This document shows positions 25,807 through 62,042 of a stretch of 64,000 nucleotides of DNA, piece by piece. Position 1 is the stretch's first letter; each line of letters begins with the position of its first letter. The stretch spans positions 630,844 to 694,843 of the forward strand of contig OY762063.1 in NCBI GenBank assembly GCA_963665075.1, read 5' to 3'. This stretch comes from Dehalococcoidia bacterium. Lineage in GTDB: Bacteria > Chloroflexota > Dehalococcoidia > Lucifugimonadales > GCA-2712585. A model generated the notes under the pieces. It had not been told where the DNA came from. It did not search any database and saw only the letters and a program-made list of their open reading frames with translations. A program made the position numbers and the translations under genes.

Positions 25807-25837
25807 GAAGCCGGGCAACCCCCGGCTTCTTTCTTCT
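25807..25837 (+). terminator. Rho-independent terminator closing the 16S transcription unit
   Basis: Stem GAAGCCGGG / CCCGGCTTC and loop CAACC, followed by TTTCTTCT. Confidence 0.7.
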
Positions 25838-28800
25838 ATAATAGGAGTGAAGGAACCTAATTCTTGGACAAAAGTGACAATGATTAGCAAAGCAGAGATT
25901 AAGAACCGCGTACTCACCGATAACACCGCTCAAGGAGTTCTCAATCACCTAAGGGAACTCGAATCAAACCGCGCTCGCATGCAAAGGCGATGGATTTGGG
26001 AGCTTTTGCAGAACGCCCGAGATGCTTCCCATGAGGATGACACTCACCTTGTCGCCTCAGTTGAACTTTGCAGTGGCGAGCTTGTCTTTCAACACAATGG
26101 CCGCGGATTCACTATGGAGGAAGTTGCTCACCTTATTTACCACGGCTCCACAAAACTTGAGGATGAGGAGACGATAGGACAGTACGGTAGCGGGTTTCTG
26201 ACAACTCATCTATTGTCGCCAACCATTGATGTTTCCGGGCAACTCGATGACAAGCGACCTTTTGAGTTTCGACTCAAACGTGAAATTACCTCCGCCAAGG
26301 CCCTAAGCAACTCAATGGATAGAGCATGGGATCAGTTCGATGCGTCTACCGAAGCTGTAGCAGATAGTTATACGACTCGATTCCGATACCCGTTGGAGGA
26401 AGAAGCAACTGGCGCAGTTGAGGAAGGGATTAAAACGCTAAAGCAATGCGCTCCCTTTGTGGTCGTATTCAATCGTCAGTTTCGGAGCATCAATATTCAG
26501 TCCCCAGACGAAGCCACAACCTTCGAAGTAGTCGAACGAGTCACTTTGGCAGAAGGATTATATTCAGTCAGGGTGGGAGTAACGGAACAAGGAGCATTAA
26601 GGGTACAACAATACCTTCTTGCGGAAGGTACACAAGCATCCGTGACCATTCGTATTGAATCGACGGACGATGGGGTAGAATGCCTAGCACTCCAAGACAT
26701 TCCGAGGCTCTTTCTTGGGTTTCCTTTGGTAGGGACAGAGACATTCAGCTTTCCAGCCATTATCAATAGCTTTGCATTCACTCCAACTGAAAACAGAGAT
26801 GGTGTATATCTTGGCCAGAGCAATGATGAGGCTAACCAAAACAATCAAGCAGCTATCGAAGAAGCTTTCGACTTGCACACAAAGTTGATCAAGTTTGTGG
26901 CAGAATCCCGGTGGGCCAATGTCCATACGCTGGCAAACATCCCAACAATCACTGAACAACGTTGGCTCAGTAGAGAGTGGCTGAATGACCGACTTAGACA
27001 GCTTGTGTCTCAAGTTCGCCAAACGCCCGCGGTTCTCAGTGGTGATGCCGCATTGCTTCCAAAGGATTCCATTGTCCCGCTGGCTACAGAGGACATCAAC
27101 ACGGAGGCCCTTTGGGACCTATTGAGTCAGGTCAAAGCCCTCCAGCAAAAATTACCGGCGCGAAATGAAGCCAACGGTTGGCGCGTGGCGGTCGAGAGCT
27201 GGGCGCAAATTGCAGATTACGATGCGACTTCATTCGGCGAAGGTTTTGATAGCAGCAAATTAGTGTCGTACGTTGAAGAAGCAACCAAGCATAGCAGCAA
27301 CTCCAACATTGCCACACTTGAACAAGTTGTAGATGTAGATGCGGTCGCATGGCTAGACAGGTTTTATCAGTTTCTCAAGGATGAAAATACTGAAAATCTG
27401 ATTCGCGAGCGTAACATCGTCCTTAATCAAGCTGGCTATCTGGGCAAGCTCGTCAATCTGCACCGTGACAACGAAATTGATGAAGAGTTGAAGGCCATCG
27501 GGGACGATGTCCTTGACCTTAGGTTTAGAGTGCGACTTCGTGACGTTCGTCTCACTTCTCTCGCAAATGAACCTGGCAAGGGAGACCTCGGAAATAATGA
27601 AGTAAGCAGAGCAGTTGCGGATAAGCTGCAAGAGCTTAGTAATGAAGATGATATCGGAATCCAGTTCGCACATGCTAGCCCGCGTTTCTTGACGTGGTTA
27701 GTAACAAACAAGCAATTGGGGAGTTTGACAGGATTCCCAGCGTTCTCCAAGAGGTCCAACATCGGTAATCGTGCGGTGCTTTGGTTAGGGCAGAAAGGAA
27801 ATATCAATGCAGATATACCTCTTGCTCCTATCAACGCATGGGCAAAGGATCTTCAGCCATTTGCAGACATCTTTCCGTGGCGATACATTCTGGCCGAAGA
27901 TTATTTCGCAGCAATGCCTCAGACTGACGTTTGGCGGATGCTCAGTGAAGAAGGATATGTGAGGACGGATGTAGTGGTAAACAGCAACAATACCATTAGT
28001 GACTTCCTCCCAGACGAACCATTGCCGGAAGACGAACACATTACAGTCGAAGACATCACCCAAACTGAAATTGCCTTCCTTACTCGAACCAGAGAACGAG
28101 TCGGGATTATGGCGCGCCTGCGTGACAGTCAAGCACGTGCTAGACTGTTCTGGCGCTTCTTGACAGAATGGTTAATCACACACGATTCAGAAGGTTTGGA
28201 GCCTCAGTCAGCGAACTGTAAATGTGGCGTTTCCCATAGGTATTATCCCGCACGATGGCTGGTGCCGGTTGTGAGGAATATATGGGTACCGCAGGGAAAT
28301 GACATACATGATAGGGCAACAGCCCAGTCCCTAGCCAAGCTCCTTAGGGGCAGTGGGTGGACTCCCAATGCACTAAGCGACAACCCCACCGCTCTTAAAT
28401 TTCTGGAAGCAATCCGAGTGACGCGCTTTGACCTCGTGAGGCATTTCGCCGCGAGCGATGAGGAATCCCAATCTGCTCTAGATGAAGATTTGACCAAGAT
28501 TCTGGTTGCCACGGATGGAGATCTCAGTCATGTCAAGGCCTTCATGGAGGATATGAAGACGGATAAAGACTTCCTTAAGCACCTTGAAGAGCGTCGAAAA
28601 ACGAGGAGGGATGTACATGAAAACCAACGCATTGGGTCTCTTGTCGAAGACTTGGTGAAGGATGGTTTGGAAGACGAGGGATTCACCGTTAAACCCACCG
28701 GAATTGGTTCTGACTTCGAGATCGAATATGACAGGATTGAAGGTGACCAAGAGGTAGGAATAGAGTTGTCGCGAAACGGTCGAACTTGGTTGGTTGAAGT

Positions 28801-29160
28801 CAAGTCTACACGAGAGCAACGAGTGCGGATGACGACCAAACAGGCCGAAACAGCTGTGGAGAAAGGCGATGGTTTCCTACTCTGTGTGGTTCCTGTAGGA
28901 AACGATGGAACTAACCTAGAGAAGGAAGAAGTGAGAGCCAACATGCGATTCGTGCAAAATATCGGACCACTCGTTGAGCCTCAATGCACAAAACTCGATT
29001 TGTTGAATAATGTCCGTGACTTCGCCACAGCCCCCAGCGATGATGACATCCGATTGGAAATTGAAGGTGGCACAGCGCGAATAAGCGTCAATGACGCTGT
29101 ATGGCAAGATGGGATATGTCTCAGCGACCTCTCTACGAAGCTAATGTAGCGTAGAATGCG
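25838..29160. other. AT-richer island 1 (single defence-type gene, no recombinase)
   Basis: Composition drops right after the 16S terminator (a spot-counted line is ~50% G+C versus ~65% in the backbone) and recovers near 29160. Confidence 0.55.
25880..29149 (+). CDS. GHKL (sacsin/HSP90/MORC-like) ATPase fused to C-terminal DUF3883 / PD-(D/E)xK-like nuclease domain, 1,089 aa
   Basis: N-box WELLQNARDAS, G1 FQHNGRGFT, G2 GQYGSGFLT. C-terminus has GSDFEIEY...WLVEVKST (D...EVK). The track ORF start at 25763 runs through the rRNA processing stem and terminator and is rejected. Confidence 0.7.
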   Translation: MISKAEIKNRVLTDNTAQGVLNHLRELESNRARMQRRWIWELLQNARDASHEDDTHLVASVELCSGELVFQHNGRGFTMEEVAHLIYHGSTKLEDEETIGQYGSGFLTTHLLSPTIDVSGQLDDKRPFEFRLKREITSAKALSNSMDRAWDQFDASTEAVADSYTTRFRYPLEEEATGAVEEGIKTLKQCAPFVVVFNRQFRSINIQSPDEATTFEVVERVTLAEGLYSVRVGVTEQGALRVQQYLLAEGTQASVTIRIESTDDGVECLALQDIPRLFLGFPLVGTETFSFPAIINSFAFTPTENRDGVYLGQSNDEANQNNQAAIEEAFDLHTKLIKFVAESRWANVHTLANIPTITEQRWLSREWLNDRLRQLVSQVRQTPAVLSGDAALLPKDSIVPLATEDINTEALWDLLSQVKALQQKLPARNEANGWRVAVESWAQIADYDATSFGEGFDSSKLVSYVEEATKHSSNSNIATLEQVVDVDAVAWLDRFYQFLKDENTENLIRERNIVLNQAGYLGKLVNLHRDNEIDEELKAIGDDVLDLRFRVRLRDVRLTSLANEPGKGDLGNNEVSRAVADKLQELSNEDDIGIQFAHASPRFLTWLVTNKQLGSLTGFPAFSKRSNIGNRAVLWLGQKGNINADIPLAPINAWAKDLQPFADIFPWRYILAEDYFAAMPQTDVWRMLSEEGYVRTDVVVNSNNTISDFLPDEPLPEDEHITVEDITQTEIAFLTRTRERVGIMARLRDSQARARLFWRFLTEWLITHDSEGLEPQSANCKCGVSHRYYPARWLVPVVRNIWVPQGNDIHDRATAQSLAKLLRGSGWTPNALSDNPTALKFLEAIRVTRFDLVRHFAASDEESQSALDEDLTKILVATDGDLSHVKAFMEDMKTDKDFLKHLEERRKTRRDVHENQRIGSLVEDLVKDGLEDEGFTVKPTGIGSDFEIEYDRIEGDQEVGIELSRNGRTWLVEVKSTREQRVRMTTKQAETAVEKGDGFLLCVVPVGNDGTNLEKEEVRANMRFVQNIGPLVEPQCTKLDLLNNVRDFATAPSDDDIRLEIEGGTARISVNDAVWQDGICLSDLSTKLM

Positions 29161-29183
29161 GTGGGGCGTATTTGGTGTATTCA

Positions 29184-29258
29184 CCCGCTTTCCCCCTATC
29201 ATTAGGGCTGATGCCAACCACCGCCAAAGGAGGAATTCAAGGCTGAATACATACCCTC
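29184..29258 (+). repeat. Degenerate copy of the promoter/RBS/first codons of the downstream DDN gene (partner 30002-30069)
   Basis: CCCGCTTTCCCnCTATCATTAG...AAGGAGGAATTCAnGGCnGAATACATACCCTC is shared. Copy A has AAG where copy B has the ATG. Confidence 0.6.
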
Positions 29259-29323
29259 TCCACCCAATAAGCCCGAGCCGAGGGCACAAACCCGCGACAC
29301 GCCGGGCATCCCGAAGCTGAACC

Positions 29324-29854: not shown

Positions 29855-30049
29855 CCGAATCTAACAAACTTAACCGACTCATGCAAAGCTGTCACTACAA
29901 GCAAACGTTCGCGATTCACCCTCCGGTTCATTTCAACCAATGAGGCTGCCGGAACCGTGCGTCCGATGAAAGTGCATATCTCCCACCTAACTAGCGTCTT
30001 CCCCGCTTTCCCACTATCATTAGCCACAACCATCAGCAAGGAGGAATTC

Positions 30050-30483
30050 ATGGCCGAATACATACCCTCGCCCGCGCAGTGGGTGCGCGACCAGGTGGAG
30101 CTTTACGAAAGCAGCGGCGGCACCCAGGGCACCACCCTCCGCGAAACCGGCCTCCCCGTCATCATCGTCACAACCGCGGCAACCGCACCGGCGCCGTCCG
30201 CAAGACTCCCCTCATGCGCGTCAAGGACGGCGACAACTACGTCCTCGTCGGCTCCCGCGGCGGCGCCCCCACCCATCCCCAATGGGTCCACAACCTCCGC
30301 GCCGACGCCGACGTCCAAATCCAGGACGAAACCAACGTCTACGAAATGCGCGTCCGCGAACTGCCCGAAGGCGAAGAACGCGCCCGCCTCTGGGACCTCG
30401 CCGTCAAAGCCTTCCCGCCCTACGCGGAATACCAGGAGAGCACGAGCCGCTTCATCCCCGTCTTCCTCGCCGAACCCGCCTAG
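30050..30483 (+). pseudogene. F420H2-dependent deazaflavin nitroreductase (DDN) family gene interrupted by a -1 frameshift
   Basis: AAGGAGG-ATG at 30050 gives MAEYIPSPAQWVRDQVELYESSGG...PVIIVTT. The family sequence continues in another frame as RGNRTGAVRKTPLMRVKDGDNYVLVGSRGGAPTHPQWVHNL...; one missing C at ~30174-30175. Confidence 0.7.
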
Positions 30484-31462: not shown

Positions 31463-31846
31463 ATGACCCCTCTGCAAGTACATTGGGCGCAGTGCACGGA
31501 TAGAAGGCGGCTGGTCTGGTGCCTGCTGAAGGACGTGGACACCGAAAACGTGAACACCGGCGGCGTTTATGTCATCTGGCACGGCGGTCACGTGCCGCGG
31601 GTCATCTACGTCGGCCAGGGCGACATCGCCGGCCGCGTCAACCACCACCGAAGCTCCAGCCGCATCCTCCAATACGGAACCAAGGGACTGCTGATGGTCA
31701 CGTGGGCGGCCGTTCCCGAATCGGAACGAAGGGGAGCCGCGAAGTACGTCGCCGACGCCCTGGAACCTCTGCGGAGTCTGGAGGACGACACCCCGCCGAT
31801 ACCCGTCAATCTCCCGTGGGACACGCCGCCGATTGCTCCTCAGTAA
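31463..31846 (+). CDS. Small GIY-YIG-like protein (host-like GC)
   Basis: GGVYVIWHGG..VIYVGQG.IAGRVNHH has the same motif order as the island GIY-YIG protein at 50855..51184. Confidence 0.4.
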   Translation: MTPLQVHWAQCTDRRRLVWCLLKDVDTENVNTGGVYVIWHGGHVPRVIYVGQGDIAGRVNHHRSSSRILQYGTKGLLMVTWAAVPESERRGAAKYVADALEPLRSLEDDTPPIPVNLPWDTPPIAPQ

Positions 31847-32984
31847 GCGCGTCAAGACCCTCTGCATCATCTCCGCGACGCTCCTCCTGCTGCCCCTCAT
31901 GGCGGCTTGCGGCAGCGACGATGACGAATCGACGGCGACCCCATCGCCAACCCCCGCCGCCGAGGTCATGGTCGATCTTCCCCACGACGAAGGCGCCCAC
32001 GTCACCCCGATAGAATGGTGGTACTTCAACGGCCACCTGGACACGGAGGAAGGCCGGACTTTCAGCTACCACTTCGTCACCTTCCAGTCCGTGCTGGAGT
32101 CGGGTTTGACGCCCCGGTTGATGCAACTCAGCTGGGCCGACCACGCCGAGGGAATTCATCTGGCTGAGGAGCAGGCTGCCTTCCCAACCATAGAGGCGAC
32201 TTCGGGAGAATTCGACCTCGACGCCGGCGGCTGGCGCATGAGCGGCGACGGCAAGTCCTTCGATCTGTCCTTCAACATCGGCGACTACGCCGTGGAACTG
32301 GAGGGCGTATCCACAAAGCCTCCCGTCTTCCATTATGAAACCGGCTACGTGGACCTGGGCATCGCCGGCAAGACCTACTACTACTCCCACACCGACGTTG
32401 AGACTACCGGCGCGGTTTCCATCGACGGCGTCTCCCACCCCGCGACCGGCGTCGCCTGGATGGACCACCAGTGGGGCGACTTCACCACGGCTGGCATCGG
32501 CTGGGACTGGTTCAGCCTGAATCTCGACGACGGCTCCGACCTGAAAATATCCGTGGTGTGGGAGCTGGACGGCGGCAAGCACGTCGAAACCTACGGCACT
32601 TACGTCAATCCCGACGGTCAGACGGCGCACCTACCCGGAGACGAAGTCGCCCTGGAATCCACCGACGCGTGGGCCAGCCCCGACACCGGCGGCGAATACC
32701 CGATGGGCTGGCGGCTGCGCGTCCACTCACTCAATCTAGACCTAACGCTGACCCCCGTAATAAGAGACGCCGAATACTCCGAATCCCTATTCATCCCCGT
32801 CATCTACTGGGAAGGCGCGATAGCCGCAAACGGCGCCCGCAACGGCAACCCCATCACAGGCCGCGGCTTCGCCGAACTCGTCGGCTACGTCCCCACAACC
32901 CTTCCAACTGGGCGCGTGGTCTCATTGATAGGGAATGAAATTCTCAAGTCGCCACCATCCAGGATCCCTGCTACTCGGCATTAA
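31833..32984 (+). CDS. Lipoprotein, AttH/CrtC-like (hydroxyneurosporene-synthase-like lipocalin fold)
   Basis: Lipobox LMAACGSD; PHDEGAH..IEWWYFNGHL signature. The family-like sequence ends at ...GRGFAELVGYV, and the last ~20 codons read into island DNA. Confidence 0.6.
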   Translation: MLLSKRVKTLCIISATLLLLPLMAACGSDDDESTATPSPTPAAEVMVDLPHDEGAHVTPIEWWYFNGHLDTEEGRTFSYHFVTFQSVLESGLTPRLMQLSWADHAEGIHLAEEQAAFPTIEATSGEFDLDAGGWRMSGDGKSFDLSFNIGDYAVELEGVSTKPPVFHYETGYVDLGIAGKTYYYSHTDVETTGAVSIDGVSHPATGVAWMDHQWGDFTTAGIGWDWFSLNLDDGSDLKISVVWELDGGKHVETYGTYVNPDGQTAHLPGDEVALESTDAWASPDTGGEYPMGWRLRVHSLNLDLTLTPVIRDAEYSESLFIPVIYWEGAIAANGARNGNPITGRGFAELVGYVPTTLPTGRVVSLIGNEILKSPPSRIPATRH

Positions 32985-34076
32985 CAGATCAATTTCCTTT
33001 GCTTTCCGACCTCCGCGCCCGTGGTGCGCTGAAATACCCGGGAATGGCGCAGTGGTTTGCCTGACAAGTAGCCGTCTATGGGGCCATACTTCCCGCATTG
33101 CGGATATACACATTGCAGCGGTCCTTCGGCGTTGGTCGCTACGGACGAGAATTGCTGATCCTCTCTTTAGATGGCCCTTGCATTCTTCGAAAACGCTTGT
33201 GATTAAACGTTGATATTCCACGCGGTTTTCAAATCGTGCTGATTTTGTCCAGTTCTTCCGAAACGGGAAACCAAGCATCCAAAGCCGAATCCAATGGTCG
33301 TTCCAATAATCAGTAACTCCACAATATGGGGGCGATGTAATCAATAGTGCTGCATTTGCACGATTCTGTTTTCGAAGTTCATATCGGGAATCTCCCAGCA
33401 GGACTGTCCCAAAGGCTTGTGTAGGTACGCCGTATTGGTATCGACGGTTAATCTTGGACTCCAACATAGCCACTGGATCTACTTCAGGCGGTTTGAGGTA
33501 ACCATTGCGTGTCCACCATTTGACCGCATAGGTAGGTGAGTATGCGATGGTAGGAGACATGACGTTCGACAGGCCAGATCCCATTTTATCCTGCATGTGC
33601 AAAGCTATAAATGCCATCAGGGTTCTATCTATGACTGAGTTGCGCCAGTCAAGTTCACGGCGAGCAGATTTTAGCAGTGCTCGTACGGTAGGAGACCAAG
33701 CCATAGTTTCAAACCTGCTGTTGCTTCGCCGGTCTATGGGACGACAGGCCCTTGAAATTTCGGCCAGTCTAGCAATGACTTGTTCGGCGGAATTAGAAGG
33801 TTGCAGTTTGGCCGCAGCAAATAGCCATGCAATGGGATTGACGTCGATTCCGAGAGCGTGTCTACCCAGAACTGTGGCGGCGAATGGCCCGTTGCCCCGA
33901 CCACAGAAAGGATCTAGAACCGTTTCTCCCGGCTTTGTTAAGTTGATGATGGCGTCGTGTATGAAGGTCTGGGGGAACATGGCATAATAGCGCCCAAACC
34001 CATACCAGCGTCCTGCGGCTGTGTTACGATGCCATGTGTCCTTGCTCGTTGATTCCCCTTTTTTTGGTATCTTCAT
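32922..34076 (-). CDS. DNA amino-methyltransferase (N6-adenine or N4-cytosine), motif order I...IV
   Basis: Motif I VLDPFCGRGNG.FAA, then ~190 aa, then motif IV LITSPPYCGVTDYW. The ATG at 34076 overlaps the upstream stop (ATGA). Confidence 0.8.
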   Translation of the reverse strand: MKIPKKGESTSKDTWHRNTAAGRWYGFGRYYAMFPQTFIHDAIINLTKPGETVLDPFCGRGNGPFAATVLGRHALGIDVNPIAWLFAAAKLQPSNSAEQVIARLAEISRACRPIDRRSNSRFETMAWSPTVRALLKSARRELDWRNSVIDRTLMAFIALHMQDKMGSGLSNVMSPTIAYSPTYAVKWWTRNGYLKPPEVDPVAMLESKINRRYQYGVPTQAFGTVLLGDSRYELRKQNRANAALLITSPPYCGVTDYWNDHWIRLWMLGFPFRKNWTKSARFENRVEYQRLITSVFEECKGHLKRGSAILVRSDQRRRTAAMCISAMREVWPHRRLLVRQTTAPFPGISAHHGRGGRKAKEIDLLMPSSRDPGWWRLENFIPYQ

Positions 34077-35389
34077 GTCGCGAGGCTGTGTATCAGATCC
34101 GTACCGGCCTTTAGCGGAATAGACGCCCAACGATGAGATCTACGCAAGGCGAGGAATTGATCGCTTCCTACCCCTAACGGTCCAGCCGTGCTGATAGCGT
34201 CTCCCAAGGCACGTGGCGCAGGCTGATTGGTCAGCGGTGGATCTGATTCAGGTTGTGCTATGTTGAGGACAAGTCTTTGTCCTTTTGTAGTTTTTAGAAT
34301 AACGGGCCGTCCATAGTGAGTGAGCTCACCCCAAGGAGTTGGGCTATCGGAATGCCCGGCAATTATGTGTTTTCTGATGTACGCATTGTTTGGCAGCCAA
34401 ACATGGTCAGCAGGGATTCGCTTGTTTGGGGCCGGCGCTCGGTCAAGCTCCTCAGCGTGTTGTACGAACGGCCCGCTTTTAACCCCGGATATAACCAGCA
34501 ATTGTGCGTCTGGACGGAATTTTTGAAGTTCAATTTGGATCCGCTTCATTTCTCTGCGGATTGATTGAGCTAGTACGGCAATGGTGCCAAACGCAGCCAG
34601 TTGACCATCCATGACAAATGCAGTGTTACACAGGGCGGCCAAGCCCTGTTCAGATTTGGCCAAGCGTCGCAGGCTGTTGACCAAAGCCAACATTTCCAGA
34701 GTTTGCATAACTCGAATGTGACACTCACGAGCAGATTCATTTTCTCTAAATTGCTCGTGAACCCTAAGGGCGTCTGTAGTAACGATGCCCATTCCACACT
34801 TGGGGCAATTTTCTTCGGTTCGCGGTTTGGGCATCGGCAGCTGAGTACCATTACAATAAGGATGATTAGGACATCTACGGATTTTATGCTGGGATCCCAG
34901 TACGTAATAAAGACTCTCAGCGAAAGTTTCGCTCCCCAAAGATACTTTATTCAATGTATCATTGAAGGAGCGGCGAAACCATTCTTTAGGACCCAGTCCG
35001 TCAATTGTCTTGGCATTCTTACCTGGCAGCACTGCACCGAGACTATGCCCACACTCGGTCTTCCTGAGTTCCCGCGGATTGACTGCACCGCTGTCGGCTA
35101 GCTTGCTCAGCGATGCTAGTTGTCTTAGCTTGATAACCACAATCCCAAGCGATACAACTCCGGCTTGTGTATCTGGGAGTCTTCCTGGGAAATGGTCATA
35201 GACTTGTGAGCCATCTATGGCTACCAAATGGGTTCGCGATGTCCCTACGGGACTTGGTCGGAAACGTGGTAGGTTTAGTACAGCATCTTGACTAGGTGGT
35301 TGTAACCGATCGCGGAACTCGGCAAATTCCGTGCTATCGGCTATTGCTTGGATTGCAGCCAATCCCGCTCTCTCATCGGAGTACGGCAT
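34073..35389 (-). CDS. NurA-like nuclease with Zn-ribbon insert (putative)
   Basis: HLVAIDGSQV and AFVMDGQLAAFG resemble the two DGS/DGxL NurA motifs. Cys cluster CPNHPYC...CPKCG. Located directly downstream of a HerA-like ATPase. Confidence 0.5.
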   Translation of the reverse strand: MPYSDERAGLAAIQAIADSTEFAEFRDRLQPPSQDAVLNLPRFRPSPVGTSRTHLVAIDGSQVYDHFPGRLPDTQAGVVSLGIVVIKLRQLASLSKLADSGAVNPRELRKTECGHSLGAVLPGKNAKTIDGLGPKEWFRRSFNDTLNKVSLGSETFAESLYYVLGSQHKIRRCPNHPYCNGTQLPMPKPRTEENCPKCGMGIVTTDALRVHEQFRENESARECHIRVMQTLEMLALVNSLRRLAKSEQGLAALCNTAFVMDGQLAAFGTIAVLAQSIRREMKRIQIELQKFRPDAQLLVISGVKSGPFVQHAEELDRAPAPNKRIPADHVWLPNNAYIRKHIIAGHSDSPTPWGELTHYGRPVILKTTKGQRLVLNIAQPESDPPLTNQPAPRALGDAISTAGPLGVGSDQFLALRRSHRWASIPLKAGTDLIHSLAT

Positions 35390-35442
35390 ATTCTACTCAG
35401 TCAACAAATACGTGCTCAGAATTCCCCGTTGCCTGACAAGCC

Positions 35443-37617
35443 TTATGGAGTGGTGGCATCTTGGATCTCGAACTTGTCGAGTTGGACTGGTACAGTATAA
35501 GCCTGTGATAGCGTACGTATTCGCACAAAACCTTGCTCACTGACCTTCCCGATTTGTTCAATGAAGTCTGAGAAATCCATGTATCCGGCGACAACTCTAC
35601 GTTCAGATTCGGAATTCAGGTAGGATAGAACCCAGTTATCGGTTTCACTGAGTATTTCAGGCATCACTGAGCTTGGTGCCTGCGTGGCTAAAACCATTCC
35701 GACATTTAACTTGCTTCCTTCTTTGGCTGTCCTCGCCCATACAGTTGTCAGGTTGTCGCGTGCATTTGCACGGGGGAGTAAGTTGTGGGCTTCCTCAATA
35801 TAGATGATTATGTGCCCTTTCGTCGCTTGGGATTCGTCTGGGGGCTTGGAAGGGTCGAAATTTGCCAAAACAGACCTAAACTGTTCCTGCTGTGATCTGA
35901 ATATGCGCCACATCACCCGCTCGGCGGCAGCTTGATTCTGTTCTGGATCGCCGGCTGATTGGTCAATGATGACCAACTTGCCTTCTCTCAAATCATCGAC
36001 AACGGCTTCGGCGAAATCATTGCTTGTATTAGGATCGTGTTGTTCCTGGGCAATTTGGAAGGAGCGAGGGCCATTTCGGGATTCGAAGATGCGCAACACC
36101 GCTCGAAACCTAGGATCTGCCCAAGATTCATGAGTCGAACTTTTGCTGATATAGTCCTGTTCGAACTTGTCGAAGTAACTCCTTTTGTCTTCAATAAAAC
36201 GTGACAGTGCGGTAAATACTGTTATGAGTTGGTCCCAAGTGACGTTAAATTGTTTAGTTGCAGATGATTCGAGGATATTAGATGCTTGAAGATAGTCTGT
36301 CTTGTTGTCGCTATTCGGGTTTTTGTCTAGTTTAAGGGCAGCAATCAGTTCTTTTGAAAACATCGAGTGCATTCCCGGCCCTTGAATTGAGGGTTGCCAG
36401 TGTGACGGCTGCGACAATCCGGCTGCTACTAGTGCAGTTCGATAGGCTAGAATAGCCCGGTAGTAGCGGGTCTTGGCTCCCATGTCTCCAGCAGCATTGG
36501 GTTCGACAGAAAGGTCTATGTCACGGAAGGCAGTGGTGTACCTGGCAGTTTCGTTTACCATGATATTCTTTATGATTTCTTTGCCGGCAAGCATCTGATC
36601 GAGGGCCTGCTCGACTTTCTGGGTGTCCTGTGCCGTTTGCCAAGATTTAGGTATTGGATCTCCAAAGAAGTTTAGCTTCATAACCTTGCGTTCAGGATCC
36701 CAATCAACAGGAATCAATCCATAGGTTGCAACTTCAGATTGTCGGGGCAAACCTATGGATTCGTGGACTCGGTGAAGGCCTTTACCGTCTTGGTAGTTGT
36801 CTTGGGCATATTCGCCGCTCAAGTCAAAAATAATCTGTCCTATCCGATGTTCGGGATTATCTTGGCGCAACCGATAGATGCTCTCGGCTACAATCTTTAA
36901 GCCGTTTGATTTGCCAGAGCGGGACATACCGAAGTAAACGGTGCGCCTTTTCATTATGTCAGTGGGATTGATCTTAAAATCAACCTTAGTCGTGCTTTCG
37001 GACTCAGCGGCCGCAAACCTAGTACGACCAATTTTCGTAGCTCTTCTATCAATGGGTATGTCATTGGTACGATGACGATGGTTGACTATCAGATCAAGTG
37101 TGGTGGCATCCGGCTTCCATACCATTAGTTGATTGACGGAGTAGTAGTTGTCGATGTCCTCTGCATAACGGTACTGAAGTTTTTCATTCTTGGTTGCCTC
37201 GGCAATGAATGTGCCTAGTACCGAACACTCCAGTCCATGCAAAGACATCTTGTCCTTCATCCAGTCTGGGAGCCGTTCCGACCATGGCCCTCGGTTGCCC
37301 GAATCTTCAATGCTCTCTTGCCTTGTTTGATCATTAGCAGAAGCAGCCGGCAACCTAGCCTCCTTCTGAATTCGCAGTAGAATGAACGACTCGTCTCCAT
37401 CGGGTTTTGCCGCCATTAGAAACGCATTCTTGGGCAATCCACCAGCTTGCTCGCGGTCATAGTCATACACAGCTACAATTGCGCTGCTGTACGAGATGGT
37501 ATAAACAGTCCCTACCTTGGGCGCTCTCTCCCTAAACGGCCTAGTCTCCGGCTGGCTAGCGCTTTGGATTAGGTCATCAATAACAGTTGCTGATGAGTTC
37601 TGCTCATCTTGTGCCAT
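35443..37617 (-). CDS. HerA/FtsK-superfamily ATPase (HAS-barrel + DUF87-like P-loop domain), 724 aa
   Basis: N-terminal barrel-like GTVYTISYSSAIVAVYD; Walker A YFGMSRSGKSN; Walker B HIIIYIEEAHNLLP; LATQAPSSV...SYLNSESE block typical of HerA. Confidence 0.75.
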   Translation of the reverse strand: MAQDEQNSSATVIDDLIQSASQPETRPFRERAPKVGTVYTISYSSAIVAVYDYDREQAGGLPKNAFLMAAKPDGDESFILLRIQKEARLPAASANDQTRQESIEDSGNRGPWSERLPDWMKDKMSLHGLECSVLGTFIAEATKNEKLQYRYAEDIDNYYSVNQLMVWKPDATTLDLIVNHRHRTNDIPIDRRATKIGRTRFAAAESESTTKVDFKINPTDIMKRRTVYFGMSRSGKSNGLKIVAESIYRLRQDNPEHRIGQIIFDLSGEYAQDNYQDGKGLHRVHESIGLPRQSEVATYGLIPVDWDPERKVMKLNFFGDPIPKSWQTAQDTQKVEQALDQMLAGKEIIKNIMVNETARYTTAFRDIDLSVEPNAAGDMGAKTRYYRAILAYRTALVAAGLSQPSHWQPSIQGPGMHSMFSKELIAALKLDKNPNSDNKTDYLQASNILESSATKQFNVTWDQLITVFTALSRFIEDKRSYFDKFEQDYISKSSTHESWADPRFRAVLRIFESRNGPRSFQIAQEQHDPNTSNDFAEAVVDDLREGKLVIIDQSAGDPEQNQAAAERVMWRIFRSQQEQFRSVLANFDPSKPPDESQATKGHIIIYIEEAHNLLPRANARDNLTTVWARTAKEGSKLNVGMVLATQAPSSVMPEILSETDNWVLSYLNSESERRVVAGYMDFSDFIEQIGKVSEQGFVRIRTLSQAYTVPVQLDKFEIQDATTP

Positions 37618-37653
37618 AGGCCTCTCCCTAACAGGTCAAATCTTGGGTTTAGC

Positions 37654-37727
37654 TTGGGACATACGAGGTTCGGACCGTGATCTCTGTCTCGAGAGGAAAA
37701 TATCCTAGCCCATTAGGTGAATGCACC
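37654..37727 (-). pseudogene. Decayed tRNA-Glu(CTC) copy
   Basis: Aligns along its full length with the intact tRNA-Glu at 57907-57983. The anticodon loop CTCTCGA is retained, but the acceptor, anticodon and T stems have mismatches and the T-loop lacks 1 nt. Confidence 0.65.
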
Positions 37728-37822
37728 AACTAATGCCACCATTCTATCACACTTTCCCGTGTCTAATCACCAACTGTTCAATAATCAATAAAGTGACTAC
37801 TGCCGAGTGCAGTAGTAATAGG
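37728..37822 (+). repeat. Decayed copy of the tRNA-Glu/tRNA-Gln intergenic promoter region plus first ~22 nt of tRNA-Gln
   Basis: CCATTCTATCACAnTTTCCC.TGT...CACCAACTGTT..ATAAT...CTGCCGAGTG..GTAGT..TA is shared with 57984-58080. Confidence 0.65.
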
Positions 37823-38093
37823 ACGCAGCCCCCAACCACACCCGTTTCCGGTCTAAACGCCCAAAACCATAAGCCCTCGGCGGGGGCCATCTGACCGATC
37901 GCCTCCCTACCAAGTCACTAAACGGCATTTGGCAGCGTCATACTTCGTAACTAAATATCTCGTTTTGCGCGTAAATCGTCGGCGTCATACATTTCGCCGC
38001 AGGCTTGACTAGAGTTGCTCATATAAGTAAGCTACATTCGTAACTGCCAAGTCTGCCTATGGCTCTTTCCAATTCGAATAGAGAGGTGTCGCG

Positions 38094-39833
38094 ATGACCG
38101 GACTACCAAGGCCCCATCTCTGGGGAGTCTCTTACCTCCTGGGCGCGCTGGTCGTCCTGACCCTGCTGATTGCGGCCTGCGGCGACGACGCCACGCCCGA
38201 ACCTACTCCCGCCGCGACGCCCGCTCCAACGGCGGCCCCCGCGCCGACGGCTATGCCGACCCCTGCCCCAACGCCCACCGCGGCGCCTGAGCCGCAGCCC
38301 GTCGTCAGCAAAGTCATCGTCGCCATCACTCCGCCATCTCCCCAGAGCACCCTGTTCCACAAGGTCTGGGTTGAAGGAAGCGGCCCCCTCCGCGGCATGT
38401 ACGAAACCCTCATCGGCTTCAACCGCTACACCCGCGAATACGAGCCCACCCGTCTCGCCACCGATTGGAGCATGTCCCCCGACGGCACAAAGTGGACCTA
38501 CAAGCTCCGCGAAGGCATCCCCTTCCACAACGGCGCGGAATTTACCGCCCAGGACGTGGTCTTCACCTGGGAGCAGTACGCGAACAGCATGCTCTCCGGC
38601 TCCGCCCTGATGATGGAAGTCATCGACGGCGAAGACAGCTTCACCATTCCCAATCCCTACGAAATCACCTGGAATCTCAACAGGCCGGAAGCCACCATCG
38701 GCATCTGGACCTCCGACATGTTCCAGTGGCTCAACTACAGCAAGGATCATTGGGACGCCGTCGGCGGCGAGGAAGGCTACGCCGCAGACCCCATCGGCAC
38801 CGGCCCCTTCAAGTTCGTCAGCTTCGGCGAAAACAGCCACATCGCCTTCGAGCGCGTCGATGACCACTGGCGCCAAACCCCCCAGATGGACGAAATCGAG
38901 TTCCGATACGTGAAGGAAGACGCCACCCGCGTGGCCATGCTCCTGGCCGGAGAGGCCCACGTGTCCGACATCCCCAGGAACCTGATTCCCCAGGTCACCC
39001 AGGAAGGCTACTCCGAGGTCTACAGCACCGTGCCCGGCTTCATTGTCTTCCTGATGTTCGGTGGGCAATACTACTACCAGCCGCCCGGCTGGGAGGACAA
39101 GTTCGATCCCACTTCCCCTTTAACGAATACCGACGTTCGCAAGGCTCTGAGCCTGGCCATCGACCGGGATGAGATAAACCGGGTCTTCTTCGACAATAAG
39201 GCCGACTACGCCACCGCCTTCAAAATCCATCCCACCGACGCCGCCTACAACGACCGTTGGGCCGTGGACCCCTTCGACCCCAATCAGGCCAAGCAGCTGC
39301 TGGCCGACGCCGGCTACCCCAACGGCTTCGAAGTTGAGTTCGTAGCCAGCAAGAAGCCCGGCCTCTCCGAAGGCCCGGAAATCTCCGAGACCATCTCCCA
39401 GTACTGGAGAGACATTGGCGTCACCGTTGAACTCAAGGAAATCGAGTACGCGGAGATGCTCAGCATGGGCCGCGCGTGGGAGCTTCAGAGGCACGCCAGG
39501 TTGGAGATGCACGGCTTCTTCTCCTACGAAATGTCTCTGACCAACAACCTCAAGGTCACCGCCACGGAAGACAGGGCCAGAGGCGGCATGTTCGCCCACG
39601 AGGTGACCGATGGCCTGGTACGGGAGATAGAACTCACCGTGGACCCGGCCGAGCGTCTGCAAAAGTTCCAGCAGTTGGGCGACTTCCTCTACGACCAGCG
39701 CGCAATCCTCCCCCTCTACTGGGTGCTGCCCGTCGCCGCCTACGACGATGGTATAATCGCCAAGTACGAGTCGGACTTCTCCAACCAGGGGCCGACCCGT
39801 CATTGGGAGTACGCCGAGCTCGTAATGAAATAG
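38094..39833 (+). CDS. ABC transporter substrate-binding lipoprotein, family 5, with Pro/Ala/Thr linker
   Basis: Lipobox LIAACGDD and a PTPAATPAPTAAPAPTAMPTPAPTPTAAPEP linker, followed by an SBP_bac_5-like body (FERVDDHWRQTPQM). Confidence 0.8.
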   Translation: MTGLPRPHLWGVSYLLGALVVLTLLIAACGDDATPEPTPAATPAPTAAPAPTAMPTPAPTPTAAPEPQPVVSKVIVAITPPSPQSTLFHKVWVEGSGPLRGMYETLIGFNRYTREYEPTRLATDWSMSPDGTKWTYKLREGIPFHNGAEFTAQDVVFTWEQYANSMLSGSALMMEVIDGEDSFTIPNPYEITWNLNRPEATIGIWTSDMFQWLNYSKDHWDAVGGEEGYAADPIGTGPFKFVSFGENSHIAFERVDDHWRQTPQMDEIEFRYVKEDATRVAMLLAGEAHVSDIPRNLIPQVTQEGYSEVYSTVPGFIVFLMFGGQYYYQPPGWEDKFDPTSPLTNTDVRKALSLAIDRDEINRVFFDNKADYATAFKIHPTDAAYNDRWAVDPFDPNQAKQLLADAGYPNGFEVEFVASKKPGLSEGPEISETISQYWRDIGVTVELKEIEYAEMLSMGRAWELQRHARLEMHGFFSYEMSLTNNLKVTATEDRARGGMFAHEVTDGLVREIELTVDPAERLQKFQQLGDFLYDQRAILPLYWVLPVAAYDDGIIAKYESDFSNQGPTRHWEYAELVMK

Positions 39834-45307: not shown

Positions 45308-47206
45308 CTACTCCTTCCCCTCCTTGTCCCCCTCTTCCACCTCTTCCGCCTCCTCATCTTCCGGGCCGAGTATGTCCGTGATGGCCTGCTCCAGGATCCA
45401 CTGAATCCTGAAGCTGAACAGCCCCACAATCAGCGCCGGCGACAACAGCAGCAGCAGCGACAACGGAATCGACAGCGTGTCCAGTGTGAACAGCCGGATA
45501 ACCAGCGGCAGCGTCAGCAGGAACAGCAGCGCCAGCAACACCGTCGCCATCCCGTACTCGACCATCGTCCTGAAAGTCCGCGACTGCTCCCCGCTTCCGC
45601 CGCCGGATTCCGCGCTTTTCGGGTCACTCGAAGCAAGCAGGGAAATCGTCCCCAACGAACGCCAGATTACCACGGCGGACGGAATGCTCAGACCAATCAC
45701 CACCCCGACTATCAGCATTCCGGCAACCCCCGTCGGCACCGACAGCAGGTCGCTCACAACATCCGGCGCCAGGTAAAGCACGCTTGTGCCCGCGACGCTG
45801 AGGAACCCCATCACTGCCACGTTGATGAAGATAGTCCGCCGCACGCTTCGGAACCGTTGGCTCCTGGTGCCGTTCAGCGTGAGCGCCGACCAGAAAGCGT
45901 CCATGCCCAACTGCACCGAGAGCACAATCCAGGTTAGCGGCTCCGGCGTGAATCTATCCACCCACTCCGCCACCTTCGACGCGCTCCTGCTGGTTATGGG
46001 CGCCAGCACCGAAGTGATTGCCGTCACAATCGAAAGCACGGCCCCCAGCGGCGAGAATCCCGCCACGTCTCCCGGTCCCAGCCGCCCTATGGCCAGCGAG
46101 AACTCCCCCATCTGCGGCATCGTCATCCCCACCTGCAGGGCTTCGCTGAATCTTCGCCCCGCCAGTATCGACCCGATTGTGTTCGCGGCGATTTTCCCCA
46201 GCATGAACACCGCCACTACTATCAGCGCGGTCACGATGTAATCGTCCAACGTGCGGTAGTCGATGAGCATTCCGATGGACAGGAAGAACAGCGCTCCGAA
46301 CATATCCCGCACCGGCGCAATCATCCGCGTAACCCGCTCGGACGCCTCCGTGTCGCCGATGATGACTCCCACCAGGAAGGCTCCGGCGGCGGGCGAAAGT
46401 CCAAGCAGCGTGGCGCACAGGGCCAGAAGGAAGCAGGAGCCGAGGCTCCAAAGCAGCAGCGTCTCGTCCGACCGCAATCGAGCCAACGCGCGCATCAGCC
46501 TGTCGCCCAGCATGGCCCCGACCACCAGCCCCACGACGCAGAAGATCACGAGTTTTCCGGCCAGCAGCCCTGCGTCGGCGAGACTCGCCGTTCCCGTCGT
46601 CGCCAGCCCGGCGAGCACCGTAAGGAAGATGACGGCGGCAAAGTCTTCGACCAGAAGAATGCCGACAATCGTCTGTCCCCAGCTCGCGTTGAGGTTCCCC
46701 CCGTCGCGCAGGCTCTTCAACAGAATCGCCGAGCTGCTGATTGCAATGGCCGCGCCCAGATAGAGCGCGTGACCCTGGTCCAGCCCGGGCAGGAAACCTA
46801 CTATCCACACTCCGAACAGCGTCATTACGCTGATTTCGACGATGCCGATGACCAGAACGCGGGGGCCGATGTTGCGAATCCGCTTCCACCCCAACTCCAG
46901 CCCGATGCTGAACAGCAGCAATATCAACCCAAGTTCCGCCAGCAGCCCGATGGTGTCCAGATTGCTGATGAGCGGCGTGGGCAGCGTGAACGGCCCCATC
47001 AGCATCCCCGCCAGCAGATAGCCCAGCACCGGCGGCTGCCAGATAAGACGTGCCAGAATCAGTCCGGCGGCGGCGACCACCATCGCCACCGCGAAGTCTT
47101 TCAGCAGCGTAGCGGTGCCCTCGGAAATGCCCGCGGGCAATATCGTAAGCAAGGTTTCGATGGCGCACCTTCTGAGAAGCGCGTGAACGGCGAGCGCAAG
47201 CGACAA
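45308..47206 (-). CDS. Cation:proton antiporter (CPA2/Kef-like) with extra C-terminal membrane domain
   Basis: ~12 TM segments with LAELGLILLLFSIGLEL and GAFLVGVIIG motifs of Na+/H+-exchanger family proteins. Confidence 0.7.
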   Translation of the reverse strand: MSLALAVHALLRRCAIETLLTILPAGISEGTATLLKDFAVAMVVAAAGLILARLIWQPPVLGYLLAGMLMGPFTLPTPLISNLDTIGLLAELGLILLLFSIGLELGWKRIRNIGPRVLVIGIVEISVMTLFGVWIVGFLPGLDQGHALYLGAAIAISSSAILLKSLRDGGNLNASWGQTIVGILLVEDFAAVIFLTVLAGLATTGTASLADAGLLAGKLVIFCVVGLVVGAMLGDRLMRALARLRSDETLLLWSLGSCFLLALCATLLGLSPAAGAFLVGVIIGDTEASERVTRMIAPVRDMFGALFFLSIGMLIDYRTLDDYIVTALIVVAVFMLGKIAANTIGSILAGRRFSEALQVGMTMPQMGEFSLAIGRLGPGDVAGFSPLGAVLSIVTAITSVLAPITSRSASKVAEWVDRFTPEPLTWIVLSVQLGMDAFWSALTLNGTRSQRFRSVRRTIFINVAVMGFLSVAGTSVLYLAPDVVSDLLSVPTGVAGMLIVGVVIGLSIPSAVVIWRSLGTISLLASSDPKSAESGGGSGEQSRTFRTMVEYGMATVLLALLFLLTLPLVIRLFTLDTLSIPLSLLLLLSPALIVGLFSFRIQWILEQAITDILGPEDEEAEEVEEGDKEGKE

Positions 47207-56612: not shown

Positions 56613-57738
56613 GGTTCCCCCGCACCCGCGGGGATAGACCGGCGTGGCTGGCGAAGCAAAGGCTGGCGAAGTGGGTTCCCCCGCACCCGCGGGGATAGAC
56701 CTCACATCAAGGGGATTAGCCATGCCCAGATCCAGGTTCCCCCGCACCCGCGGGGATAGACCGATATGGCGGGAAGAGCTGGAGGAGATGGGGGTGGTTC
56801 CCCCGCACCCGCGGGGATAGACCCCACCCTTGGCATCTACCGCGTCTGGCCCCAGTGGTTCCCCCGCACCCGCGGGGATAGACCCTTGACCGCCTGGTCA
56901 GTGCCTATGCCGAGGACGGTTCCCCCGCACCCGCGGGGATAGACCGGTATCCTAAAAAGCGACGCCCCGCCCGTCCCCGGTTCCCCCGCACCCGCGGGGA
57001 TAGACCCTTTTTGGAGCGAGGCTGATTTCCTCCGCCCCCGGTTCCCCCGCACCCGCGGGGATAGACCTGTACGGGTCGTTGGGGTCCGCGCCGTTCTCCA
57101 GGTTCCCCCGCACCCGCGGGGATAGACCTCCCTGGTACGAGCCGCCGCCGGAGTTGCCGACGGTTCCCCCGCACCCGCGGGGATAGACCACGCACTGTCC
57201 GGCAACCCGCCGCCGGGCTCGGGGTTCCCCCGCACCCGCGGGGATAGACCGCAGTTCTTACTCCGCCGCCGCCCTGTATGCCTGGTTCCCCCGCACCCGC
57301 GGGGATAGACCGCTTCCTTTTCCCATGATGCTGGCGTACATTGAGGTTCCCCCGCACCCGCGGGGATAGACCTATGATAGCAATATCGGTAATGTTGGTA
57401 AAATTGGTTCCCCCGCACCCGCGGGGATAGACCTGAAGGGGCGAAGAGGATTCGGCATACGACGGCGGTTCCCCCGCACCCGCGGGGATAGACCCACCTT
57501 GAATAGATCGTATGCATCCCCGCTCACGGTTCCCCCGCACCCGCGGGGATAGACCCTATGAATTTGACTACACGATTGCGATGTCGGCGGTTCCCCCGCA
57601 CCCGCGGGGATAGACCGGCGACGGCTCGCCGGTGGAAGGCGATGGCTCGGGTTCCCCCGCACCCGCGGGGATAGACCGTGGAAGGCGTGGACTGAAAGAG
57701 GATTTAGACGGATTCCCCCCCACCCGCAGGCACAAACC
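56613..57738 (+). CRISPR. CRISPR array, type I-E-like repeats: 18 identical + 1 degenerate terminal repeat, 18 spacers
   Basis: 28-nt repeat GGTTCCCCCGCACCCGCGGGGATAGACC at an exact 61-nt period from 56613 to 57650. The last copy at 57711 is degenerate (GATTCCCCCCCACCCGCAGGCACAAACC). Spacers are 33 nt. Confidence 0.95.
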
Positions 57739-57906
57739 ATTCCCCCAACCCGTTCCCTGGGGTTCCGGCCGGGAAGGTTCCCGCAGCGGCGCTCATTTGC
57801 AGATATAGACACAATATCACAAGAAAGATGCGCCATCGTTTACCATCTGCATCTGAAGAAGAGCACCGCGGCAATGCGCTGCCGGCGAAAGCCAAAGTCA
57901 AAGAAA

Positions 57907-57983
57907 TGGTGGCGCATACGGGGTTCGAACCCGTGATCTCCGCCTTGAGAGGGCGGTGTCCTAGTCCACTAGACGAATGCGCC
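57907..57983 (-). tRNA. tRNA-Glu (anticodon CTC), CCA encoded
   Basis: Manual cloverleaf: acceptor GGCGCAT/ATGCGCC, anticodon stem CCGCC/GGCGG, loop CTCTCAA, T-loop TTCGAAC. Confidence 0.85.
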
Positions 57984-58057
57984 AACCGAAATCCAATTCT
58001 ATCACAATTTCCCTTGTGCACAACACCAACTGTTGTATAATTTACAAGACCACCCGC

Positions 58058-58131
58058 TGCCGAGTGGTGTAGTGGTAGCACTCGTGACTCTGGATCACGC
58101 AACCCTGGTTCGAATCCAGGCTCGGCAGCCA
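58058..58131 (+). tRNA. tRNA-Gln (anticodon CTG), CCA encoded
   Basis: Manual cloverleaf: acceptor TGCCGAG/CTCGGCA, anticodon stem CGTGA/TCACG, loop CTCTGGA, T-loop TTCGAAT. TATAAT box ~20 nt upstream. Confidence 0.85.
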
Positions 58132-58207
58132 AACCCAATCCACATCGTCTATCCCCTTGAACCATATCCCACCGTTCGCGTCCCAATCTGTAGACTGAAA
58201 AAACCCC

Positions 58208-60258: not shown

Positions 60259-60311
60259 TCGTGACCGCCTTCGCCGCCGGGAATCAGGCGACAACGCCGC
60301 GCCGCGGGAAG

Positions 60312-61064
60312 CTAGTCCGTGTCTTCCATCGCCTGAATCTCCCGCTCCAGATCCTCCACCTTCAACGCGTCATCGTCGGAGAGTCCGTAGCAGCGCTCCA
60401 GGTACAACTGAGCCAGGCGCGTCCCCCGGCTGGAAGAATCCTCGGCAGCGTCGATCAGCTTCCCCACGTGGTATCGCTCAGGCAGAAAGCGGGCCAGCGT
60501 GCGAAGCTCGTTGCCCACCTCTTCCCGCATCTCGCTGTCACGACCCTCCACGGCGTAACGGAACTTTACCACCAGCTTCGATAGCTCGTTCAGGCGGTCC
60601 TTCTCTCCCAACAGGCTGTACATCACCTCGTTGACGCCCAGCCCCTCGTCCTCCGGCTCCTCCAACACGGGAACCTTCTGCGAATCATCGAACTTCGACC
60701 AGATTTCGGAGTATTCGTGGGCAATCTCCCCCACCGCCTGCATCCCGCCCGCCACGTCCTGCGGCGAATGAAGCCCGCCGTATATCAGGTCGTCCCCACG
60801 CGCTTCCGCCAACTGAATCAGCCGCTCGTAGCCGTCCACGTCCTCAGGCACGGGCGGCATGGGAAAGGACGAAATCTCCGCCGCCGACGCCGCCCCAAGG
60901 GAGGAGGCCAGGAAGGGCGGGACGTATTTCGCGATGTTCACGGGAAGCGGAAACACCACCACGTAGGTGGCGTACAGCTTCTCCGAGTCCATGCTGTCCC
61001 GGAAATAAACCAGCGCGTGACCGCGCGGGTTCTCAGAATTGCCGATTTCAAATTCTAAAGCCAT
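60312..61064 (-). CDS. Hypothetical acidic protein (250 aa)
   Basis: Long host-GC ORF with no competing frame. No family recognised. Confidence 0.45.
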   Translation of the reverse strand: MALEFEIGNSENPRGHALVYFRDSMDSEKLYATYVVVFPLPVNIAKYVPPFLASSLGAASAAEISSFPMPPVPEDVDGYERLIQLAEARGDDLIYGGLHSPQDVAGGMQAVGEIAHEYSEIWSKFDDSQKVPVLEEPEDEGLGVNEVMYSLLGEKDRLNELSKLVVKFRYAVEGRDSEMREEVGNELRTLARFLPERYHVGKLIDAAEDSSSRGTRLAQLYLERCYGLSDDDALKVEDLEREIQAMEDTD

Positions 61065-62022: not shown

Positions 62023-62042
62023 CTCTTTGCGCCTACGAGTTA

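Follow-up and report, generated by a model that had tools for sequence, protein, structure and literature searches.

The stretch of DNA considered here, referred to as the window, comprises 64,000 nucleotides (nt) of a Dehalococcoidia bacterium (assembly GCA_963665075.1, contig OY762063.1, positions 630,844 to 694,843 of the forward strand). It contains an intact pair of divergently oriented genes for tRNA-Glu(CUC) and tRNA-Gln(CUG) and, about 20 kb to the left, a decayed partial copy of the same pair, referred to here as the relic. The intact genes are the only ones with their anticodons among the 57 tRNA genes of the genome. The relic adjoins a three-gene defence cassette that encodes a HerA-like ATPase, a NurA-like protein and a DNA methyltransferase (MTase), and the HerA initiation codon (ATG, 37617) follows the relic tRNA-Glu, which is on the same strand, at a distance of 35-36 nt from its 3′ end. 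Cassette and relic are bounded by a CrtC/lipocalin-like gene on the left and by a block of metabolic genes beginning with a solute-binding protein (SBP) gene on the right. The coordinates of these features are collected in Table 1.

Window positions 37654-37824 (171 nt) form a decayed direct copy, on the same strand, of tRNA-Glu(CUC), the divergent-promoter spacer and the 5′ end of tRNA-Gln(CUG). When the 700-nt regions 37400-38100 and 57650-58350 are compared by local alignment, a single collinear match is obtained (37660-37825 against 57915-58082) in which 127 of 173 columns are identical (73%), with six short gaps, and the MAFFT alignment of relic and intact pair agrees with it. The score of 109 is far above that of 300 shuffles (20.9 ± 2.4, maximum 31), which bears out the preliminary description of this DNA, where a collinear match of about three quarters identity in the same orientation had been noted by eye. 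Also as described there, the copy extends over the whole tRNA-Glu gene, the spacer (74 nt in the intact locus) and the start of tRNA-Gln, and similarity ceases after nucleotide 24-25 of the latter. A search for additional copies across the single-contig genome of 2.70 Mb finds only these two (BLAST E = 2e-18). Chance or low-complexity resemblance was considered and rejected; given the alignment score, the BLAST E value and collinearity over three distinct functional parts, its probability is negligible. Significant collinear homology to one parent locus is instead the mark of a decayed segmental duplicate.

Table 1. Features of the relic, the intact tRNA pair and their surroundings (window coordinates)
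Feature	Position	Strand	Remarks
CrtC/lipocalin-like backbone gene	31833..32984	+	homology to relatives ends ~32915
N6/N4 DNA methyltransferase, last cassette gene	32922..34130	-	Pfam PF01555
Middle cassette gene, NurA-like according to the preliminary description	34073..35389	-	no Pfam hit
HerA-like ATPase, first cassette gene	35443..37617	-	Pfam DUF87/HerA
tRNA-Glu(CUC) pseudogene (relic)	37654..37727	-	57/77 identical to intact gene
Relic of the tRNA-Glu/tRNA-Gln divergent-promoter spacer	37728..37800		63% identical to intact copy (copy B)
Perfect 8-bp hairpin ACTACTGC-CGAGT-GCAGTAGT	37796..37816		without counterpart in intact copy; from scan for terminator-like hairpins
First 24 nt of tRNA-Gln(CUG) (relic)	37801..37824	+	19/25 identical; ends at D-arm/anticodon-stem boundary
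Unique spacer, ~110 nt	37825..37935		minus-strand terminator-like hairpin 37872-37888
SBP_bac_5 solute-binding gene, first of SBP block	38094..39833	+	Pfam
Na/H exchanger	45308..47206	-	Pfam
Type I-E-like CRISPR (clustered regularly interspaced short palindromic repeat) array	56613..57738	+	19 repeats, 61-nt spacing, last degenerate
Intact tRNA-Glu(CUC)	57907..57983	-	ARAGORN; sole gene with this anticodon
Intact divergent-promoter spacer, 74 nt	57984..58057
Intact tRNA-Gln(CUG)	58058..58131	+	ARAGORN

The tRNA-Glu portion of the relic is not a functional tRNA gene. ARAGORN calls five tRNAs in the window and none at 37.6-37.9 kb, and there is no match to the Rfam tRNA family (RF00005) in 37400-38100 even at E ≤ 10, in line with the earlier expectation of a pseudogene call or no call at all. 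Within the cloverleaf, four of the 21 stem pairs are broken, one in each stem (3-71, 11-25, 30-42 and 52-64), a single nucleotide is missing from the T arm, and the terminal CCA has been lost. The anticodon CTC is kept in a loop that reads CTCTCGA (CTCTCAA in the intact gene). The retained loop and the broken acceptor, anticodon and T stems had been recognized previously, and the D stem is to be added to that list. The number of broken pairs matches chance (permutation P=0.37). Three stem pairs have changed on both sides and still pair, where 0.94 are expected (permutation P=0.04).

The decay is even. Where an alignment column does not vary among close relatives, the relic has kept the shared base at 75% of positions in tRNA-Glu, 78% in the spacer and 76% in the tRNA-Gln fragment, and the substitutions counted from the alignments comprise 12 from GC to AT versus 4 from AT to GC, with transitions making up 15 of the 17 scored in the tRNA-Glu part. 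The GC content of the relic is 0.44, compared with 0.52 over the same span of copy B. Because the three parts have decayed equally, and the tRNA-Gln piece was dead on arrival, selection can never have maintained the tRNA-Glu copy, complete though it was; divergence of ~24% that is equal across parts, AT-biased and mostly due to transitions argues that the relic has been neutral since it formed. Uniform neutral decay across segments that were formerly under different constraints is the behavior of a pseudogene, and the p-distance of ~0.24 corresponds to ~0.3 substitutions per site on one branch. One local departure is the hairpin at 37796-37816, two bases of which arise by transversions in the tRNA-Gln fragment (GGTG to GCAG). 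This looks like templated quasi-palindrome correction, or else selection for the hairpin.

The relic sequence is absent from all 12 same-genus genomes examined, each of which has one tRNA-Glu/tRNA-Gln pair. Its spacer is 63% identical to that of copy B and 57-65% identical to those of close relatives (64-65% for the genomes designated G006 and G008), and only 38-39% identical to those of more distant members of the genus and family. In a maximum-likelihood tree, the relic sits on a very long branch within the close group (77% support) but at no well-supported position there, its nominal neighbor being copy B with 25% support. This equidistance of the spacer from copy B and the relatives, together with the tree placement, indicates that the source would be either this lineage at an early time or some unsampled genome closely related to it, rather than a recent copy of B. 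A closer donor was sought among 40 relatives and rejected: the best matches are the single tRNA pairs of close relatives at 71-73%, no better than the genome's own copy. Among the relatives examined, this genome branches outside G005 and G003; its divergence from either at four-fold sites is 0.40-0.51, and that between G005 and G003 is ~0.40. Since ~0.3 substitutions per site is close to the terminal-branch length, the event that formed the relic would be about as old as the terminal branch leading to this genome. A deviant history of the 38-47 kb block, raised by a four-fold divergence from G005 of 0.51 versus 0.40-0.43 in the flanks, was dropped on the grounds that gene-by-gene ratios to the G005-G003 control are alike (left flank ~1.25, block ~1.3).

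The relic resides within ~5 kb of genome-specific DNA (~32916-37935), in which the cassette is followed by 35 nt, by the relic itself (171 nt) and by a further ~110 nt. The left end, placed at ~32916 by finer alignment, is marked by the methyltransferase stop codon, and the CrtC-like gene now runs into the cassette with its final ~20 codons. On the right, similarity to G005 and G003 begins again at ~37935-37976. The left junction of the insertion falls in the 3′ tail of the CrtC-like gene; the relic part ends inside tRNA-Gln. The 35-nt and ~110-nt spacers have no homologs in this genome, in relatives or in other loci with the cassette. GC content is ~0.62 apart from two dips, to ~0.50 in 33-38 kb and to ~0.47 in 50-55 kb.

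Comparison with flanks from nine relatives defines the surrounding backbone. G005 and G003 are collinear with the window from 15 to 47.2 kb except at 32894-37976, in place of which they have a 230-300-nt spacer, and the SBP gene directly follows the CrtC-like gene in both. These two spacers are homologous to each other (score 161 versus 19 ± 2 for shuffles) and show no similarity to the relic, the adjoining 110 nt or the tRNA pair, Smith-Waterman scores being equal to those of shuffles. In G008, G006 and G012, the CrtC-like gene and the convergent Na/H-exchanger gene are separated by 109-144 nt, an adjacency which implies that the backbone order is CrtC-NaH and that the SBP block was inserted. 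This block (~37.94-45.30 kb; 7.3 kb) carries seven genes of SBP/amidohydrolase/aminotransferase type, from SBP_bac_5 (38094) to a class-IV aminotransferase (45239), and represents an older insertion common to this genome, G005 and G003. It is found elsewhere and inverted in G010, G004 and G009, in which the left flank is closer to the tRNA pair; in G010 it adjoins homologs of this genome's 322-335 kb region. The true CrtC ortholog of G009 is reduced to residues 41-129, which points to a deletion truncating the CrtC-like gene as the origin of the arrangement in that genome. In no genome examined does the tRNA pair lie between the CrtC-like gene and the SBP or Na/H-exchanger genes.

To the right of the Na/H exchanger are a DEDD exonuclease gene, a truncated cas3 and then a low-GC island of sulfur-modification type (49.6-55.4 kb). 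Within the 20 kb between the two tRNA copies, then, 38.0-47.2 kb is shared backbone and only 47.2-57.9 kb varies. The earlier observation that the copies bracket 20 kb as direct repeats is correct in itself; the idea of a mobile 20-kb segment is not, because its first 9.2 kb belongs to the backbone that is collinear in G005 and G003. The segment that does vary near the relic is 32.9-37.9 kb, the relic included, which answers the question of synteny raised in the preliminary description.

Several lines of evidence bear on how the cassette itself moves. It recurs at 64-76% nucleotide identity in 18 other loci, which were located by means of HerA (14 in species-representative genomes, two further in 60 relatives and two in metagenome contigs); one of them is in a same-genus genome, at a different site, and the relatives of HerA come from metagenome-assembled genomes of Dehalococcoidia and Chloroflexota. 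Homology among these loci ends sharply, at window positions 32921-32989 on the left and 37569-37618, at the HerA ATG, on the right. Because the cassette alone recurs, with sharp ends, the three genes move as a unit. The relic is absent from all 18 of the other loci. No mobility gene is present in the cassette, the only att-like (attachment-site-like) repeats around it are short ones at chance level, and Pfam scans of the main open reading frames (ORFs) reveal no integrase or recombinase in 32.9-57.9 kb. The entire 2.70-Mb genome encodes two tyrosine recombinases (PF00589), at 1.94 and 2.55 Mb, which are both more than 1.2 Mb from the window and probably of Xer type, and no large serine recombinase (PF07508). 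At least three low-GC islands in the window, set against two recombinases genome-wide, imply that such islands turn over without integrases.

Another genome-specific low-GC island, designated island 1, lies to the left of the cassette (island 2) at 25835-29323. It contains a single plus-strand ORF of 1,128 amino acids and is absent from G005, G003, G010 and G009. At its right edge is a decayed direct copy (29177-29262) of 29996-30073, ~80% identical with a score of 79 versus 17 ± 2, the parent being the promoter, ribosome-binding site and first-codon region of a backbone gene 0.8 kb further right. The same edge layout in islands 1 and 2 suggests a recurrent process.

The 3′ flank of the intact tRNA-Glu gene is occupied in this genome by the CRISPR array, upstream of which are cas2 and a cas1 fragment. 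The last, degenerate repeat ends at ~57738, 168-169 nt from the gene; both this distance and the 36 nt between HerA and the relic are as first reported. The tRNA-Glu gene is identical in four of 11 aligned relatives, namely G010, G008, G003 and G007 (tRNA body, 1 change), and the remainder differ at 1-5 of 77 positions, eight close relatives having three or fewer differences that fall mostly in CCA-end columns. CCA is encoded in this genome (57907-57909) and in G010, G008, G011, G003 and G007, and is replaced by other bases in G005, G009, G004 and G006. The DNA beyond differs in every genome examined, with the variable sequence starting at the discriminator/CCA end, a pattern that repeated replacement of the 3′ flank by recombination would be expected to leave. 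In six relatives, the flank carries genes for PD40 and RCC1/fn3 surface proteins, an RNase-D-like exonuclease, a DUF998 protein, an S9 peptidase, GH3/enolase-type enzymes and TypA, and no recognized defence genes. The proposal that this flank is a hotspot for defence islands therefore holds with respect to its hypervariability across the genus and does not hold with respect to its cargo, since among this genome and those six relatives only the former has defence genes there.

Some additional features of these flanks may be recorded. The flank in G003 includes a truncated large serine recombinase (L032:18394-19680), 254 nt from the tRNA-Glu 3′ end, with Recombinase and zinc-ribbon domains and no detected catalytic N-terminal domain; it is the only recombinase at this flank in the six relatives checked. 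In G005, ~2.6 kb (composite 60153-62796, L035) separates tRNA-Gln from the conserved right-flank gene, a homolog of that at window position 58208, so that the 3′ side of tRNA-Gln is variable as well. In G016, a member of the same family whose intact pair is at C3:103296-103526, a 46-nt, 89%-identical copy of the tRNA-Gln 3′ end lies 3.8 kb away (C3:99444-99489), and would constitute the classical att-type duplication expected of an island integrated there.

Taken together, the data favor, with a probability that we put at roughly 0.55, an account in which the relic is a dead partial copy that moved with the cassette from a site just 3′ of tRNA-Glu(CUC) without the aid of an integrase. Under this account, the cassette would once have resided immediately 3′ of tRNA-Glu(CUC), either in this lineage or in a related donor, and a ~5-kb piece would have been copied or transferred to the present site, which has the 3′ tail of the CrtC-like gene on one side and the SBP block on the other. 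The route could have been fully illegitimate recombination, or recombination with one homologous end, anchored in the CrtC-like gene, and one illegitimate end. The moved segment would have ended arbitrarily 24 nt into tRNA-Gln, carrying along ~171 nt of the old right flank; this piece, redundant on arrival, would then have drifted neutrally by ~0.3 substitutions per site. What speaks for a joint move is that the relic adjoins the cassette on the same strand within one genome-specific insertion, both being absent from the 12 same-genus genomes, and that this lineage-specific insertion is joined on one side within a conserved gene and on the other at an arbitrary position, as anticipated for a co-transferred flank. 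From these observations we infer the shared movement, the former position and the type of recombination; as no genome was found to carry the cassette beside the tRNA pair, it is the relic alone that points to the former site. The preliminary description of the element as a since-decayed duplicate of the tRNA pair that adjoins the MTase/NurA/HerA island is upheld.

A number of observations weigh against this account. The cassette lies beside the tRNA-Glu/tRNA-Gln pair in none of the 18 other loci, an absence that is weak evidence given the sparse sampling, and a tRNA gene is near HerA in only one of them (L060), where a tRNA-Ala lies 309 nt upstream. The account offers no explanation for the ~110 nt that follow the relic on its right. 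Parsimony, taken by itself, would favor one gain at this site no more than one loss in the ancestor of G005 and G003. Finally, given the doubly changed stem pairs, part of the divergence could have accumulated in a still-functional tRNA of an unsampled donor.

Other origins for the relic were weighed against the same evidence. A tandem duplication of a ~20-kb unit running from the SBP block to nucleotides 1-24 of tRNA-Gln, the first copy of which was later lost or replaced by the cassette, is rather unlikely, although the arrangement that it would produce, X - island - Z′ - Y - Z with direct repeats, is the one seen. The nominal grouping of the relic with copy B in the tree, at its 25% support, and the similar layout of island 1 over only 0.8 kb also agree with it. 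However, there is no trace of a second 20-kb copy in the genome, and the relic spacer matches copy B (63%) no better than it matches G006 or G008 (64-65%), an equidistance that could still be produced if the relic were about as old as the terminal branch. Less likely than this is a two-step history, whereby a tRNA fragment was copied into the CrtC/SBP spacer and the cassette later targeted the tRNA-Glu copy at its 3′ end. Variable DNA does begin at the discriminator/CCA end of the intact tRNA-Glu in every genome examined, G003 has its serine recombinase remnant nearby, and the cassette of L060 is likewise downstream of a tRNA 3′ end. Yet the cassette lacks an integrase and att repeats, the genome contains no suitable recombinase, 17 of the 18 cassette loci have no nearby tRNA, and a single rare event is a more parsimonious explanation than two that struck the same place independently.

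It is more improbable still that the relic is the original tRNA locus, or a scar of attL type, and that the 20 kb was inserted at nucleotides 24-25 of tRNA-Gln by an element or circular DNA already equipped with a tRNA-Glu, a spacer and the 5′ part of a tRNA-Gln. Such an insertion would fit the left-flank genes of G010 and G009, which lie 2.7-10.6 kb from the single tRNA pair (the CrtC-like fragment of G009 is 2.7 kb from tRNA-Glu), and some Klebsiella islands have been reported to integrate on the upstream side of tRNA genes, at the D-loop region (bioRxiv 10.1101/2020.11.02.365908). Against it, the supposed element would contain backbone genes; the CrtC-SBP adjacency in G005 and G003 and the CrtC-NaH adjacency in G008, G006 and G012 have no tRNA pair between the CrtC-like, SBP and Na/H-exchanger genes, nor does any other genome examined, and the layout in G009 is accounted for by the CrtC-truncating deletion that left residues 41-129. 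There is also no integrase, and the repeats are 73% identical and 171 nt long.

These last properties are relevant to the proposal in the preliminary description that the repeats are a footprint of tRNA-targeted island integration, which is not sustained. Known att repeats are usually 15-221 bp in length, most often 20-25, and as a rule they are near-identical, correspond to the 3′ half of one tRNA and are accompanied by an integrase (Klebsiella tDNA survey; bioRxiv 10.1101/2020.11.02.365908). The relic does resemble such scars in being a partial tRNA duplicate beside acquired low-GC defence DNA, and in that the flank of its parent tRNA is hypervariable. Unlike them, it spans a whole tRNA, the spacer and the 5′ end of a second tRNA at 73% identity, and backbone DNA lies between the copies. 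Classification as the att-type repeats of a tRNA-integrated island was accordingly rejected, as the extent of the repeats, the lack of an integrase, the failure of the enclosed DNA to be present or absent as a unit and the lack of near-identity are all contrary to it.

Other parallels can be drawn. In homology-facilitated illegitimate recombination, one end of the incoming DNA is joined by homology and the other illegitimately (PMC3240628); the favored account would share with this process an anchor in the CrtC-like gene, an arbitrary junction at nucleotide 24 of tRNA-Gln, the dispensability of an integrase and the loss of a short piece of recipient DNA. That process has been demonstrated experimentally, in naturally competent bacteria and in E. 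coli conjugation, whereas here it would be deduced from the end product. The orphan immunity-gene arrays of Vibrio cholerae, left behind by sequential displacement of type VI secretion system effector modules (PMC5361080), are analogous in that fragments of a former neighborhood persist beside a new conflict-system module as a record of past arrangements, although those relics are retained functional immunity genes and the present one is a fragment of RNA genes undergoing neutral decay. The relic also resembles tRNA pseudogenes derived from segmental duplications, with which it shares homology to a parent, loss of the cloverleaf and neutral, AT-biased substitutions, but it differs from them in including the promoter spacer and part of the next gene and in being physically coupled to a mobile cassette, which makes it informative about its own origin.

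Conceivably, the relic also supplies the promoter and 5′ leader of the defence operon, although we regard this as doubtful. There is no gene upstream of HerA on the minus strand, a good Shine-Dalgarno sequence (GGGAGAGG) precedes its start, and the ending of cassette homology at the HerA ATG implies that no promoter travels with the cassette. Transcripts arriving from the right would be stopped by two terminator-like hairpins on that side of the relic spacer. In the intact locus, a palindromic -35-like box that reads alike on either strand, TTGTGCACAA (58016-58025), appears to be common to the two divergent tRNA promoters. The other blocks conserved across the genus in the intact spacer are ATTCTATCACA and GTATAAT. 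In the relic spacer, ATTCTATCACA, the reverse complement of TGTGATAGAAT and the likely extended -10 element of the tRNA-Glu promoter, is kept 11/11, the palindromic box is degraded, and the -10 element of tRNA-Gln has changed from TATAAT to AATAAT. No excess conservation of the promoter is apparent in the relic (spacer 78% versus 75-76% for the tRNA parts), and a consensus promoter scan is silent at both the relic and the intact copy, which makes such a scan uninformative for this organism. If a promoter role were true, then, in combination with island 1, it would indicate a systematic, integrase-free movement of cassettes in these Dehalococcoidia, each taking with it a promoter-bearing piece of a neighbor.

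The wider significance of the relic is modest: it is an instance of known processes and an ordinary genomic scar rather than a new kind of element, and it serves as a reminder that direct repeats of tRNA genes do not always bracket a mobile island. Its value would be that of a molecular fossil, recording that an integrase-less defence cassette once resided beside a tRNA gene and that general recombination relocated it along with part of its flank. The relic also provides a rough date for that event, of ~0.3 neutral substitutions per site, and the fact that the reading frames of the cassette have stayed intact over the age of the relic argues that the cassette has been under selection.

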